Shown: in pieces, positions 25,904-56,692 of the stretch
Numbering within the stretch: the stretch's first letter is position 1
How the letters are laid out: every line of letters begins with the position of its first letter
Assembly (NCBI GenBank): GCA_045586685.1
Contig: JAZNAU010000009.1
Coordinates: 22,420 to 86,419 of the forward strand
Length of the DNA: 64,000 nucleotides
Reading direction: 5' to 3'
DNA from: Clostridia bacterium
Lineage (GTDB): Bacteria; Bacillota; Clostridia; HGM11514
Made by a program: the position numbers and the translations under genes
The notes under the pieces: model-generated
Seen by the model: only the letters and a program-made list of their open reading frames with translations
What the model was told of the DNA's origin: nothing
Databases searched by the model: none

Positions 25904-26821
25904 ATGAATCATGTAAAATATAATAAAAGGAAGTGCACAACAATGATTGTAAATAAACAGAATAATTATAGTTTATATAGTAATCCCGATACAAATCTAT
26001 TATCCAATCAAATTTGTTTCTCTCTGTTTGAGCATACTTACTTTGAATGTTCAAAAGAGGTTACCACCGTTCACAGCAACAAACGATTTAACAATACTAA
26101 TTTAATTTATTATATCATCGAAGGTGGCGGAACCATCCTATTGTCGGATCGAAAAATTCCTATTGTTCCCGGAAAAATTTATTTTTTCCCCTGTGTAAAA
26201 CCCGAAAATTACACCTCTGTAGTTCAACCGGATACAAAAAAAGTACAGATTCAATTTCAATGCAATCTGTACAGTAATCAGGATATTTTCGCTGATGTGC
26301 TTTATCCCCAATGTCTGGAGGATACTCACCATCTGATTCCTATTATAAAAGAAACGGTTCTTTCAAAAAACCCAGGAACACAAGTCCTGCTTTCTCCTTT
26401 GATTCAGTTAAGTATTGCTCCCTTATTTAAGCTAGTCGAGCAATCCTTAAGCGAGCAACTGATAAAAGGAAAAAAATACAGTACTCTCTTTGACTATATT
26501 AACCATAATTTATACATTGACCTGACCACAGAAAAATTGGCTAAGGAAACCGGTTTTTCTGTTTACTCCCTGACTCATACCATTCCAAAAGAAATGGGAT
26601 TTACCTTTAAAAAGTACATTACAAACAGAATTTTACGGTTGGTTTGCTTAGATTTAATTTATACAGAAACCTTAATCCGCAACATCGCTTTTAAGTACCA
26701 CTTCTCTACCGAAGGATATTTTTCAGATTGGTTTTTCAAATTAACCGAAAAGCGCCCCAAGGAATATCGTCAAAAATTCCGTTCTGCAGGGAATTACAGT
26801 TTTTATCAAAATCATATTTAA
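25904..26821 (+). CDS. AraC family transcriptional regulator (cupin + HTH)
   Basis: 305 aa; C-terminal AraC HTH (..LAKETGFSVYSLTHTIPKEMGFTFKKYITNRILRLVCLDL..); very AT-rich. Confidence 0.75.
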   Translation: MNHVKYNKRKCTTMIVNKQNNYSLYSNPDTNLLSNQICFSLFEHTYFECSKEVTTVHSNKRFNNTNLIYYIIEGGGTILLSDRKIPIVPGKIYFFPCVKPENYTSVVQPDTKKVQIQFQCNLYSNQDIFADVLYPQCLEDTHHLIPIIKETVLSKNPGTQVLLSPLIQLSIAPLFKLVEQSLSEQLIKGKKYSTLFDYINHNLYIDLTTEKLAKETGFSVYSLTHTIPKEMGFTFKKYITNRILRLVCLDLIYTETLIRNIAFKYHFSTEGYFSDWFFKLTEKRPKEYRQKFRSAGNYSFYQNHI

Positions 26822-26911
26822 CGATTGAACATTTAGATTTTTAAGGTAACCGATTTTTGAGAAGTTTTACTAATAAATTAAGCAGAACCATAGAGATATT
26901 TAATTTATAAT

Positions 26912-27106
26912 AATTTGACAACTTCGTTGTCATGAATTGGTTTTACCATGAATTGTTGCTGTCGCAACATGAATTGAATTGCCTTAATGCACCCTAAGGT
27001 GCAATTCATGAGCCGTAGGCTTAATTCATGAAATCGCAGATTTCAATTCGTGCCGTCAGGCAATTTATTGAAAAAGCGACTTGTCAAAACAAGCCGCTTT
27101 TTCTGG
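26912..27106. repeat. repeat R, copy 1 (about 195 bp), ending in hairpin terminator
   Basis: near-identical to 30548-30726 apart from one 15-bp indel and 4 substitutions; contains TGACAACttcgGTTGTCA palindrome and multiple ATGAATTG/CAATTCAT octamers. Confidence 0.9.
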
Positions 27107-27120
27107 AAGAACCCAATGGT

Positions 27121-28560
27121 TTAGATGCCACAATTTATTAAGTAATTATGTTTCATCGGTCCCGAGCCATTTCCCAAATCAAGACCTTCTAAAAGTGCAT
27201 ATGATATATATTCTTTCGCTCTTTTAACCGAGTCTTTGAGGTTAAGTCCTTTTGCAAGATTTGATGCTATTGCACTGGAAAGAGTGCATCCGGTTCCATG
27301 TGTGTTTGGGTTATCAATCCTTTTTCCATCGAACCATACAAACTTACCACTTTCATACAAAAGATCATTTGCATCATTTATACTATGCCCACCTTTCAAC
27401 AAAACGCAGCACCCATAGTTTTTCTCAATGAATTCTGCTGCTTTTATCATATCGTCATTACTCTTGATTTTCATATCTGATAAAATTTCCGCCTCAGGAA
27501 TATTGGGTGTCACAACAGTTGCAATGGGTAAGAGTTTTTGAGTTAATGTTTTTACGGCATCTGTCTTCATAAGAGTTGAGCCGCTTGTTGCAACCATAAC
27601 CGGATCTACAACAATATTCTTTGCATTATAAAATTTAAGTCTATCTACAATTACTTTAATAAGTTCGCTTGAGGATACCATCCCGATTTTTACACTATCG
27701 GGAAATATATCTTGAAATACTGCATCAATTTGTTCTTTTAAAAATTCGGGAGTAGTTTCCTCAATCGCTCTTACTCCAAGTGTATTTTGAGCTGTAAGTG
27801 CAGTAATGGCACTCATAGCATAAACACCATTCATTGTCATAGTTTTGATATCTGCCTGAATACCTGCACCACCACTTGAATCACTGCCGGCAATAGTTAA
27901 TACCGTTTTCATTTTGGTGGCAAAGCAGAAGCTTCCGAAATCCTTTATGTAATAATCTGAAATTTCTTTCATCTGCTCTTGACTTAGTTCGTGTTCATCA
28001 TAAACTGCCGCAACCTTAAATCCATCATCTTTAGCAGTTTTAAGTGCATGAACCACATCTTCAAAAACTACAGTTTCTGTTTTTTCTGTACCAAGATATT
28101 CAAGTGCTTTACGATAAATATGAGATGTGGTTTTGTCATAACCTACTTCTGCACAGGAGAATATTTCAGAAAAGTATTCCAGAACCCCCAATCGTTTTAA
28201 CACATCTTCTGCAATAGCTCTGTCCGTCACAGTTGCAACACACATTTTTACACCTTTATAATGTAACCTTTTTAGAAAATCTTTCACACCTGATTTCAAC
28301 GTTACCTTTGTCCGATAAATTTCAGCCACCATATTATTTATATCGTTAACAATTTCTTGGGCAGAAAGATTAACACCATAATGCTCGCGATAATATTCTG
28401 CGGCTTGCTGGAGTGTAAATGTTTTAAATGCTTCTGCAAGGTTTTCTTTGGGTTCTTTCCCAAGTGTTCTTAAATAATCCTCGCCAAACGTGTCCCATAT
28501 CCACATAGAATCTATAATTGTTCCGTCTAAATCAAATATTGCACCCTTAAACACCTTCAA
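27121..28560 (-). CDS. thiD: fusion protein: N-terminal HAD-superfamily hydrolase + C-terminal hydroxymethylpyrimidine/phosphomethylpyrimidine kinase (ThiD)
   Basis: residues 1-200 FDLDGTIIDS... (HAD motif I); residues about 205-479 VLTIAGSDSSGGAGIQADIKT...GTGCTLSSAIA (ThiD ribokinase-fold signature). Confidence 0.8.
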   Translation of the reverse strand: MKVFKGAIFDLDGTIIDSMWIWDTFGEDYLRTLGKEPKENLAEAFKTFTLQQAAEYYREHYGVNLSAQEIVNDINNMVAEIYRTKVTLKSGVKDFLKRLHYKGVKMCVATVTDRAIAEDVLKRLGVLEYFSEIFSCAEVGYDKTTSHIYRKALEYLGTEKTETVVFEDVVHALKTAKDDGFKVAAVYDEHELSQEQMKEISDYYIKDFGSFCFATKMKTVLTIAGSDSSGGAGIQADIKTMTMNGVYAMSAITALTAQNTLGVRAIEETTPEFLKEQIDAVFQDIFPDSVKIGMVSSSELIKVIVDRLKFYNAKNIVVDPVMVATSGSTLMKTDAVKTLTQKLLPIATVVTPNIPEAEILSDMKIKSNDDMIKAAEFIEKNYGCCVLLKGGHSINDANDLLYESGKFVWFDGKRIDNPNTHGTGCTLSSAIASNLAKGLNLKDSVKRAKEYISYALLEGLDLGNGSGPMKHNYLINCGI

Positions 28561-30117: not shown

Positions 30118-30215
30118 ACACTATGTATCAGGCATCCCTACGTTGGCATTATCCAAATCAGGTTCTCGGTCGAAGGTCATACCTTCCTCTCAGCCTGTAA
30201 TACAAGCTCCCGTTT
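30118..30215 (-). promoter_or_regulatory. TPP (THI-box) riboswitch
   Basis: minus strand reads ...GGCUGAGAGG...AACCUGAUUUGGAUAAUGCCAACGUAGGGAUG..., matching the THI-element consensus CUGAGA / ACCUGAUCUGGAUAAUGCCAGCGUAGGGA. Confidence 0.9.
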
Positions 30216-30230
30216 ATTAAGTTTAAACAT

Positions 30231-30259: not shown

Positions 30260-30329
30260 TAGATTTTGATAAATTATTTTAAAGAATATAAAAACTGAAT
30301 AATTAGATGTGTCATCTAAATCATTCGGT

Positions 30330-30530
30330 TTCTATGGTTCCCCCTGTTGGACTCAAACCAGACACGTTTGCAACCTCAATTCAATTTCTCCAACCCGGCG
30401 GCTCATTTCATCGTGTTGTGGCACAGCCCTACGCCGTCGTTGGTTCTTCCGCCGGCAGCACTCCGGCTCGGTCCTCTTTGGTTAACGCCGCATATGCGGC
30501 TGTTTACCCTTAATAATAGTTGGCTTTTGG
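30330..30530. other. GC-rich about 200-nt non-coding segment with several stable hairpins; candidate structured RNA of unknown identity
   Basis: markedly GC-rich relative to flanks; hairpins gccggcagcactccggc and gccgcatatgcggc; only short spurious ORFs. Confidence 0.4.
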
Positions 30531-30547
30531 CTACATAATATTTTAAT

Positions 30548-30726
30548 GATTTGACAACTTCGTTGTCATGAATTGTTGCTGTCTCAACATGAATTGAATT
30601 GCCTTAATGCACCCTAAGGTGCAATTCATGAGCCGTAGGCTTAATTCATGAAATGGCAGATTTCAATTCGTGCCGTCAGGCAATTCATTGAAAAAGCGAC
30701 TTGTCAAAACAAGTCGCTTTTTCTGG
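30548..30726. repeat. repeat R, copy 2 (about 179 bp), its terminator hairpin abuts the 3' end of the CAU tRNA
   Basis: see copy 1; ends ...gcgacttgtcaaaacaagtcgctttttctgg immediately followed by the tRNA CCA end. Confidence 0.9.
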
Positions 30727-30800
30727 TGGGCCTTCAGGGATTCGAACCCGGGACCAACCGGTTATGAGCCGGTTGCTCTGACCAACTGAGCTAAAGGCCC
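30724..30800 (-). tRNA. tRNA with CAU anticodon; the body resembles tRNA-Ile2 (lysidine-modified), elongator tRNA-Met not excluded
   Basis: reverse complement GGGCCTTTAGCTCAGTTGGTCAGAGCAACCGGCTCATAACCGGTTGGTCCCGGGTTCGAATCCCTGAAGGCCCACCA; similarity to B. subtilis tRNA-Ile(CAU) is recalled from memory. Confidence 0.8.
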
Positions 30801-30914
30801 GTTTCACAAATAACATTATAATTATACACGATTTTTCCTTATTTGTCAATAGCTAAATTATACGAAAAAGGCAATTTCCAAGACGATTTTTAAGCCCCGT
30901 CTTTTCCCTAAGAA

Positions 30915-31040: not shown

Positions 31041-31149
31041 ATACAACAGAAATAGTATATCAGCATTTTATCCATTTGTCAAGTCCCTTTTTTAATTTTC
31101 ATCAATTTTTTATGCCTGTCTTTTCCGTTATGTAACCTTGATTGCATCT

Positions 31150-56505: not shown

Positions 56506-56692
56506 AGTATCATTAACAAAAAAAGAAATTATTTTGTGAGTATGCCCTTTTTCTTCCTCACCTTTCTTAAAATTGCACAAGAAATGTCAATGAATTGAAT
56601 GAGCAACTGAAGTTATCCGTACTTTTTTAAATTTCCGGTTGAATTATGACAAAAATTGTGCTATACTATAAGGAAAGGAGAGAGACTATTTT

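Follow-up and report, generated by a model that had tools for sequence, protein, structure and literature searches.

Element R, present in two copies (R1 and R2) in the 64,000-nucleotide (nt) stretch of Clostridia bacterium DNA analysed here (contig JAZNAU010000009.1; hereafter the window), is built of two arrays set back to back, in which small hairpins alternate with a conserved 7-nt linker, AUGAAUU on one side and its complement AAUUCAU on the other, and has a bidirectional terminator hairpin at the end. Elements of this type fold as single-stranded nucleic acid: their hairpins are maintained by compensatory change across related genomes, and their outermost linkers pair. Judged by sequence and model alignment, the closest known family is Gut-1 (Rfam RF01706), of which R would be a divergent linker variant. 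The explanation that we favour overall, and to which the genomic evidence gives about an even chance of being right, is that R is a Gut-1-class array that would present its repeated linkers to a pentameric PF05635 protein of the Avd and 23S rRNA intervening sequence (IVS) protein family.

R1 and R2 are 98% identical across 160 nt (26947-27106 and 30567-30726), show five substitutions in total in their alignment (A1), and differ in module number by one 16-nt hairpin-linker module. Read on the plus strand, each copy starts with a degenerate linker (ATAATTT in R1, ATGATTT in R2) and the hairpin GACAAC-TTC-GTTGTC, part of a perfect 17-nt palindrome, TGACAAC-TTC-GTTGTCA (30552-30568 and 26916-26932), that a first-pass annotation made from the window letters had recorded along with the repeat itself. 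Further ATGAATT linkers follow, two in R2 and three in R1, with short hairpins between them, then the centre, CATGAATTGAATTGCC-TTAAT-(GCACC CTAA GGTGC), and beyond it four AATTCAT-type linkers around the hairpins GAGCC..GGCTt, GAAAT..ATTTC and GCC..GGC. The inverted pair CATGAATTG...CAATTCATG that was said to bracket the hairpin GCACCCTAAGGTGC is present as described. The octamer ATGAATTG, reported twice per copy in direct orientation, does occur twice in R2, and R1 carries it three times on the plus strand; its reverse complement, credited with three to four occurrences per copy, is found as exact CAATTCAT only twice in R2 and once in R1, the remaining sites being the one-mismatch variants TAATTCAT, CAATTCGT and CAATTTAT. 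The enrichment over background that had been set as a check on the octamer was observed, with 14 occurrences in the window against 6.7 +/- 2.3 expected, a count reached by none of 100 shuffles, and eight of the 14 lie inside R1 or R2. A supposed relative in the recJ leader proved to be a single octamer at 56590, and a 16-mer search allowing three mismatches returned three matches against 1.8 expected, no more than chance.

Both copies fold far better than shuffled sequence (z = -8 to -9 on both strands). On the minus strand the order at each copy is gene, terminator-like hairpin, array, and each directly follows a transcription unit on that strand, since the last hairpins adjoin the CCA end of tRNA-Met (30724-30800, minus strand), which the terminal hairpin of R2 abuts, and the stop codon of a thiD-like gene (27121-27123, minus strand), 18 nt from the last hairpin of R1. 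On its other side R1 faces a converging HTH_18 (AraC-type) gene (25904-26821, plus strand). The flanking hairpins, 30691-30722 and 27071-27102, have the GC-rich stem and U-run of intrinsic terminators, with an A-run and a T-run that serve both strands, and a hairpin stands at the equivalent position in nearly every family member; a consensus terminator scanner lists neither of the two in the window. The array proper is not a terminator; only the flanking hairpin is. The TTGACA at 30552 was considered as a -35 box and rejected, there being no -10 box at 16-18 nt and the hexamer consisting of linker plus hairpin arm.

The genome-wide motif search proposed in the first-pass annotation was made with the pattern CATGAATTG-N15-40-CAATTCATG-N5-30-AATTCATG, with flexible gaps, over GTDB contigs representing one genome per species, and gave at least 119 matches, where by our own estimate about one is expected by chance. 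Among the matches listed, to which the counts below over 107 AUGAAUU arrays, 86 complete instances and 84 instances refer, nearly all are metagenome-assembled genomes (MAGs) of gut Clostridia (Oscillospiraceae, Acutalibacteraceae, Christensenellales and others) from ruminant and other guts. The R architecture recurs in more than 100 Clostridia gut genomes, with near-invariant linkers and with hairpins that vary through compensatory changes. When the instances are oriented by the asymmetric centre CAATTCAATTCATG, an orientation that corresponds to the window minus strand, the number of ATGAATT linkers ahead of the centre (the tRNA-proximal half) is exactly four in 75 of the 86 complete ones, and the canonical form has four AATTCAT linkers after it. 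Hairpin identity is conserved by position in the parsed modules. The 22-24 bp spacing, about two helical turns, that had been read into R did not survive this comparison: sites lie 16-22 nt apart inside R and linkers 16-23 nt apart over the 86 instances, and spacing is fixed by the length of the intervening hairpin, so that there is no conserved helical phasing. A few matches fall outside Clostridia, in Microcystis (locus L015) and Bacteroidetes (L056); the Microcystis one is something different, the palindrome GGGACAATTCATGAATTGTCCC repeated in tandem together with a spacer that recurs as well. In the human-gut GTGATAT family, strains that are otherwise near-identical show a length polymorphism comparable in kind to the 16-nt module that separates R1 from R2: a clean deletion of two hairpin-linker modules distinguishes L168 and L181 from L160 and others.

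Covariation among related copies bears out the hairpins and supports the structured, single-stranded reading that the first-pass annotation had offered as its alternative. Of the outer four hairpin pairs, 88-98% are Watson-Crick, a share that falls to 50-66% once partner arms are exchanged at random between sequences and that none of 500 shuffles reaches; each hairpin position accommodates 6-14 distinct stems across the family. In the subfamily alignment A3, 93.9% of cells are paired, both sides have changed in nine pairs against 2.6 expected (again reached by none of 500 shuffles), and sliding the partners lowers pairing to 27-40%.

Pairing extends beyond single hairpins. The first linker and the 5' arm of the first hairpin are complementary to the centre and covary with it over ~90 nt, arms GCC, GCCC, GCAACC and GCGCC being matched by centres GGC-, GGGC-, GGTTGC- and GGCGC-AATTCA, respectively; the perfect arm-centre helix averages 10.6 nt with an element's own centre and 8.9 nt with the centres of other elements, the highest of 200 shuffle means being 9.3 nt. 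Likewise, the first linker of the GTGATAT family is GTTATAT, which only the copy in its centre (ATATAA) matches. In every family found the linkers of the two halves are exact reverse complements, so that a single strand can fold into a ladder of four-way junctions, its 7-bp linker helices separated from one another by hairpins that protrude in pairs. Two of the five substitutions between R1 and R2 amount to a G-C to A-T exchange between the outermost linkers, ~150 nt apart (columns 6/169, with GC in 17 sequences and AU in R1 only); by our rough estimate such an exchange has a probability of about 1% by chance, and it favours a fold in which the two ends pair and close the entire array.

The Gut-1 RNA motif was reported in 2010 from 43 examples as a single unit found in the "human gut only", rated certainly RNA, and without function, partner or gene association (Weinberg et al., 2010; PMC2864571). 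Our full-text literature search found no later paper that mentions it, and full-text searches on the octamers, PF05635/S23p, four-helix-bundle proteins with repeats and Gut-1 returned no description beyond that of 2010. The RF01706 model, CA-AUGAAAU-hairpin-GUGAAAU-hairpin-GUGAAAU-hairpin-GUGAAAU, is exactly one half-array. Rfam types it as a stand-alone small RNA; for expression of that kind the evidence from the present arrays consists of promoter and terminator consensus sequences. An Rfam scan of the whole window at the gathering threshold (50 bits for RF01706) gives nothing at R, which is below the score that Rfam itself asks for detectable membership: R2 scores 16.7 bits (minus strand, 30618-30690) and R1 20.2 bits (plus strand, 26908-26980) and 19.2 bits (minus strand, 26998-27070). 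These values are so low because the linker differs from that of Gut-1, at two positions (AUGAAUU vs GUGAAAU); the R halves nonetheless align end to end with the model, each on its own strand, with hairpins and linkers in register, and by this alignment the tRNA-proximal half of R2 would be the one that corresponds to it. R has at least three short hairpins between repeated purine-UGA-type heptamer linkers, starting with CA-AUGA, and its family has covariation-supported hairpins. Arrays with (A/G)TGAAAT or GTGATAT linkers score 50-73 bits in their proximal (gene-distal) half and 34-61 bits, on the opposite strand, in the distal one. Both types share an upstream hairpin followed by CA-(A/G)UGAxxU linkers alternating with three to four short covarying hairpins, and a setting in gut Firmicutes, often behind a tRNA terminator. 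They differ in the linker, AUGAAUU in R and (A/G)UGAAAU or GUGAUAU in Gut-1, in range, the present arrays being widespread in Clostridia of ruminant and other guts and not of the human gut only, and in organisation, the units here forming a convergent pair with a defined centre tied to PF05635 genes. This convergent pairing of Gut-1-type units is new here. The earlier label of an uncharacterised element thus stands as to function and falls as to the motif class, which has been in print since 2010.

The partner gene emerged from the AUGAAUU arrays, in 17 of 107 of which the next gene encodes a PF05635 protein of 115-120 amino acids, annotated as "23S rRNA-intervening sequence protein" or as a four-helix-bundle protein. 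In one of these loci (L078) a second array of the same layout, with GTGAAGT/ACTTCAC linkers, precedes a second four-helix-bundle gene, which led us to search from the protein side. (This second gene, L078 7030-7381 on the minus strand, has an in-frame TAG at codon 23 and may be a pseudogene or reflect a sequencing error.) Two independent look-ups of exact proteins gave neighbourhoods that both have an array directly upstream, one behind a Peptidase_M28 gene and the other behind a U5-methyltransferase gene. A metagenome scan by protein alignment then yielded 80 PF05635 loci, at 53-99% identity. Their upstream regions include 57 that are distinct and 250 nt or longer; in 50 of these, three or more linkers are followed by three or more in reverse complement, and most of the other seven carry partial or degenerate arrays. 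The linkers fall into groups (ATGAATT, ATGAAAT, GTGAAAT, GTGATAT/GTTATAT, ATGATAT, ATGATG(T) and GTGAAGT) that coincide with clusters of protein sequence. In 21 of 41 metagenome loci examined, the array lies directly behind a same-strand tRNA gene of varied identity, the position that R2 occupies in the window. Arrays cluster with stable-RNA genes: L199 (892-1500) has tRNA-Val, 6S RNA and tRNA-Gln, then an array and a four-helix-bundle gene, and L034 (1926-3300) has two tandem arrays ~900 nt downstream of the 23S sarcin-ricin loop. The closest solved homologue of the partner, 2RLD, has five chains, and the PF05635 family is homologous to Avd, the accessory factor of diversity-generating retroelements (DGRs), with a representative that assembles five four-helix bundles (PMC10053308). 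No reverse transcriptase family appears among the genes called within 3 kb of the protein gene in L120-L138, where the neighbours are housekeeping genes. A near-obligatory, clade-specific pairing of Gut-1-type double arrays with Avd-like, presumably pentameric proteins would be new, our literature search having found none described.

In the strand that is transcribed, several features favour the common orientation, and R is likely to act as an RNA of the window minus strand, as far as sequence features can tell. A promoter of the form TTGnnn-17-TGnTATAAT immediately precedes the 5' hairpin in 20 of 84 instances, compared with five of 84 in the opposite orientation, and places the predicted transcription start at that hairpin. 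Where a gene follows, its Shine-Dalgarno sequence and ATG come 14-20 nt after the last linker, too short a gap to hold another promoter. The first hairpin after the centre gives way, in 45 of 86 instances and only on the common-orientation strand, to GGAG-stem-GAG; where the GUUGC..GCAAC version has Watson-Crick pairs, the flanks of this module set purine opposite purine, which is plausible on that strand alone. We infer that the common orientation is transcribed at least where the protein gene lies within 15-20 nt or a sigma-A promoter precedes the array.

These observations can be brought together in a mechanism. The hairpins would be rigid spacers that display the repeated linker, four full copies and a partial fifth in each half, an arrangement that fits a pentamer, and the linkers would be recognition sites for the pentameric four-helix-bundle PF05635 protein. 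The linker is conserved far more strictly than pairing needs, is the same at each of the roughly eight positions in an element and changes only with the protein clade, and in this it resembles the recognition site of an oligomer; the octamer as a protein site, a reading that fails in the dimeric, duplex-DNA form first given to it, is thereby favoured in a different one. When unbound, the array may pair with itself, through the complementarity of its halves, into the four-way-junction ladder, which would make a two-state switch between a self-paired and a protein-bound array, situated either within the protein gene's 5' leader or immediately before its promoter, according to the family. The window copies would either work in trans with a protein whose gene lies elsewhere or be relics. 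A broader claim, which we advance tentatively and think rather less probable than not, is that Gut-1-type double arrays and non-DGR PF05635 pentamers form a widespread, previously undescribed two-component module. Each protein clade would read its own heptamer (AUGAAUU, RUGAAAU, GUGAUAU, AUGAUAU, AUGAUG or GUGAAGU), a specificity code shown four to five times per half-array on a hairpin scaffold; the module would lodge behind tRNA and rRNA genes; and orphan arrays, R1 and R2 among them, would be sites at which the same protein acts in trans and might in addition be places where gene cassettes, in this case the thi operon, are captured or recombined.

Several findings weigh against the pentamer-binding explanation or narrow it. 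The 64-kb window has no four-helix-bundle gene. The link with the protein is one of genomic association and co-diversification, which co-inheritance of a linked module would produce as well, and the PF05635 genes sampled, at 53-99% identity to the query, represent a single clade of the family, centred on Firmicutes. As to RNA, G-U pairs are rare, at about 1-2%, and equally so on both strands (a first count of G-U against A-C, 28 vs 24 of ~1500 pairs, carried no strand signal), and loop types are mirror-symmetric between the halves, each of which is the same kind of unit on its own strand; these two properties decide neither the strand nor between RNA and single-stranded DNA, and a role for both strands, or for single-stranded DNA, is possible. 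In the window copies the terminator precedes the array on the minus strand and follows it on the plus strand, and in most families other than AUGAAUU a TGnTATAAT box lies between array and protein gene and a terminator before the array, so that the array need not be in the mRNA of the protein and may not be transcribed at all. As to the ladder, nested and scrambled linker-linker registers score alike within the AUGAAUU family, whose linkers are too invariant for their partners to be resolved within one family, and the common AAAUCAU linker variant is usually uncompensated.

The alternative with the strongest claim to attention, though we consider it unlikely, is that R is a selfish or mobile repeat, resembling miniature inverted-repeat transposable elements (MITEs) or REP and BOX repeats, or a cassette insertion site, with the protein gene as cargo or mere neighbour; its structure would then serve mobility, through folded single-stranded DNA ends, which is compatible with pentamer binding. 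As direct repeats, R1 and R2 bracket the thi promoter, a thiamine pyrophosphate (TPP) riboswitch (30118-30223, minus strand) and thiM-thiE-thiD, while one locus (L022, 1-463) has a single array behind tRNA-Met and then a flank, AGCAGAACCATTGAGATATTTAT, that matches the outer flank of R1 (26880-26904); by these flanks the two look like an empty-site and filled-site pair. The window copies are orphan arrays in the family's typical place behind a tRNA, one of them apparently copied to the end of the thi operon, and they look recombination-prone; we propose, under the favoured explanation too, that they flank that operon because dispersed 190-nt repeats served as recombination substrates. Two copies also occur in each of L011, L034, L045, L060 and L113, and several MAGs were matched on two contigs. 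A second copy of the tRNA-proximal half-array lies downstream of the four-helix-bundle gene in L086, L078 (6277-6400) and L130 (3340-3700), where direct repeats thereby frame the gene and the distal half (the L130 assembly breaks into Ns there), and in L100 a 27-nt direct repeat surrounds the array. In L120 (2777-3000) array and gene lie behind Peptidase_M28 and carry CATGTTGAATCTATCGTTTG, which in other loci supplies both the last codons (HVESIVC) of the U5-methyltransferase and, in the array's first hairpin, the 5' arm; the sequence indicates that array and gene were transplanted together to an unrelated site with 20 nt of the methyltransferase 3' end. Several of these cases show arrays moving or recombining. 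The ~190-nt arrays look like hotspots for duplication and cassette insertion, and the variation of module number between copies and between human-gut strains, the excess of arrays over linked protein genes (107 vs 17) and the near-absence of G-U pairs on both strands agree with mobility. Yet no transposase or recombinase is found among the housekeeping genes within 3 kb in L120-L138, the arrays have no consistent target-site duplication or terminal sequence, and their halves are inverted repeats of the linker only. They are absent from plasmid and phage collections, where distant blastn gave no match, and IMG/VR gave only five matches. Moreover, the U5-methyltransferase, array and protein-gene locus, where the 5' hairpin arm is the methyltransferase's own last codons, is syntenic across many species with compensatory evolution in every hairpin, which points to long vertical inheritance under selection. 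REP sequences and their bacterial interspersed mosaic elements (BIMEs), BOX and Correia repeats are likewise modular, hairpin-rich, multi-copy and intergenic, often at gene 3' ends, with variable module numbers; in them, however, the hairpin sequence is conserved within a genome, whereas here the linkers are conserved across bacterial families and the hairpins drift with compensation, and no REP-associated tyrosine transposase (RAYT) or IS200-type gene accompanies the arrays.

That both window copies lie immediately 3' of minus-strand units and start with a canonical terminator hairpin, that arrays follow tRNA genes so often in the metagenome loci and the 23S rRNA gene twice in L034, and that the fold is very stable would also suit a protein-independent RNA element of operon 3' ends, such as a compound terminator, an insulator or a stability or processing module (e.g., a substrate of RNase III or RNase Y). 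We hold this to be improbable, as such an element would need neither eight identical linkers nor linker sequences that are specific to each family nor the conserved 4 + 4 layout, would leave the near-obligatory downstream four-helix-bundle gene unexplained, and is at odds with the many instances that have their own promoter and no upstream gene. Least probable is the main proposal of the first-pass annotation, double-stranded DNA sites of the iteron or operator kind that would bind a dimeric regulator or an accessory protein of a recombinase. The 9-bp CATGAATTG does occur four times in one orientation and then four times in the other, the two together making the perfect palindrome CAATTCATGAATTG; the array lies just upstream of the protein gene's -10 box in most families, as an autoregulatory operator would; and inverted protein sites would trivially keep the halves reverse-complementary. 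As stated, the proposal founders on a site spacing of 16-23 bp that keeps no helical register, on spacers that are hairpins held by compensatory substitution, on the covariation of first linker, hairpin arm and centre over ~90 nt and on the compensatory pair 150 nt apart in R1 and R2, all unexpected for recognition of duplex DNA; nor is any helix-turn-helix (HTH) regulator consistently adjacent, the HTH_18 gene beside R1 not being a conserved neighbour. Readings as clustered regularly interspaced short palindromic repeats (CRISPR), attC site, T-box or riboswitch were set aside, there being no long conserved repeat, integrase, cas gene or consistent class of downstream regulated gene.

Table 1. 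Parts of R1 and R2 and the compensatory difference between them (window positions; the full extents of the two copies are approximate)
Feature	Position	Strand	Description	Basis
R2, complete element	30546..30722		tRNA-distal half-array, centre, tRNA-proximal half-array, terminator-like hairpin	sequence, repeat family, alignment A1
R2, tRNA-distal half-array	30546..30603	+	linkers ATGATTT 30546-52, ATGAATT 30568-74, ATGAATT 30589-95	
R2, tRNA-distal half-array, inner end	30596-30603	+	doubled GAATT, then GCC	
R2, distal hairpin	30553-67		GACAAC-TTC-GTTGTC, within the 17-nt palindrome	
R2, distal hairpin	30575-88	+	GTTGCTGTCTCAAC	
R2, central hairpin	30609..30622		GCACC-CTAA-GGTGC	sequence, folding, helix 8 of alignment A3
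R2, tRNA-proximal half-array	30623..30688	-	reads AAUGAAUUG-hairpin-CACGAAUUG-hairpin-CAUGAAUUA-hairpin-CAUGAAUUG	
R2, proximal linkers (plus-strand coordinates)	30623-29, 30643-49, 30682-88; 30665-71		AATTCAT (first three); AATTCGT (last)	
R2, proximal hairpins	30630-42, 30650-64, 30672-81			
Bidirectional terminator-like hairpin	30691..30722		AAAAA-GCGACTTG-TCAAAA-CAAGTCGC-TTTTT, between tRNA-Met and R2 array	
R1, complete element	26910..27102		canonical 4 + 4 linkers; directly 3' of thiD	
Extra hairpin-linker module	26939..26954	+	GGTTTTACC + ATGAATT; in R1, not in R2	alignment A1
Compensatory difference, first half	26912 (R1) / 30548 (R2)		A in R1, G in R2; outermost linker, tRNA-distal half	A1 column 34
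Compensatory difference, second half	27066 (R1) / 30686 (R2)		T in R1, C in R2; outermost linker, tRNA-proximal half	A1 column 187

Some observations in the surroundings of the arrays can be added to the parts collected in Table 1. A GC-rich region of ~180 nt (30326-30512) between R2 and the thi promoter was examined as a candidate RNA gene; it does not fold significantly (z about -1) and matches no Rfam family. On the minus strand it ends in GTGTCTGGTTTGAGTCCAACAGGGGGAACCA, a sequence similar to the 3' end of the tRNA-Asn located ahead of the array in L167, and the region may be a degenerate tRNA fragment or a junction scar. The tRNA-Met and tRNA-Leu genes have near-consensus sigma-A promoters of their own on the minus strand (30821-30849, TTGACA-17-TATAAT, and 31054-31082, TTGACA-17-TATACT, respectively) and are therefore separate transcription units, not one tRNA operon. 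A motif, TGGCATCTAAA(T/C), overlaps the thiD stop codon beside R1 (27120-27131) and also occurs within ~100 nt of arrays in 17 of 107 loci (L016, L028 and L100 among them), with a 27-nt version on both sides of the array in L100. Exact-protein look-ups with the AraC-type and thiE genes of the window returned no record.

R and its relatives can also be set beside other known systems. In DGRs, Avd works with a structured RNA encoded beside its gene. The protein associated with the present arrays shares the fold and family of Avd, a pentamer of four-helix bundles, but no reverse transcriptase, template repeat (TR) or variable repeat (VR) lies near the arrays (no reverse transcriptase family is called near the Avd-like gene in L120-L138), and the array is unlike the TR-spacer RNA. 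The 23S rRNA IVSs with an S23p open reading frame (ORF) in Leptospira and Coxiella belong with the same protein family and place a small ORF in, or attached to, stable-RNA transcription units, with complementary flanks able to form a long stem (PMC4990558). Relatives of R, by contrast, lie behind tRNA, 23S rRNA or protein-coding genes and not inside 23S helices 25 or 45 (R2 follows tRNA-Met, R1 follows thiD, and no rRNA was found in the window), and both complementary halves are upstream of the ORF instead of flanking it, although a half is sometimes duplicated downstream. Ring-protein systems such as the trp RNA-binding attenuation protein (TRAP) and its trp leader offer a likeness by analogy only, a short RNA motif being presented once per oligomer subunit with unrecognised spacers; here the motif would be a heptamer in place of a triplet, the spacers structured hairpins and the presumed binder a pentamer.

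For annotation, the consequence is that an entire linker variant, carried by more than 100 Clostridia species, goes undetected at the thresholds that Rfam now applies, and for genome evolution, that arrays acting as apparent hotspots of duplication and cassette insertion may be how the thi operon came to be framed. Two orphans, the Gut-1 RNA motif of 2010 and the stand-alone four-helix-bundle or 23S-rRNA-IVS proteins, can now be tested together, and the association in 50 of 57 upstream regions, the convergent-pair architecture and the match of linker to protein clade predict a specific and swappable protein-nucleic acid recognition code. If the two-component module is real, it would provide the first ligand and function for "S23p / four-helix-bundle" proteins outside DGRs, and for Gut-1 RNA.

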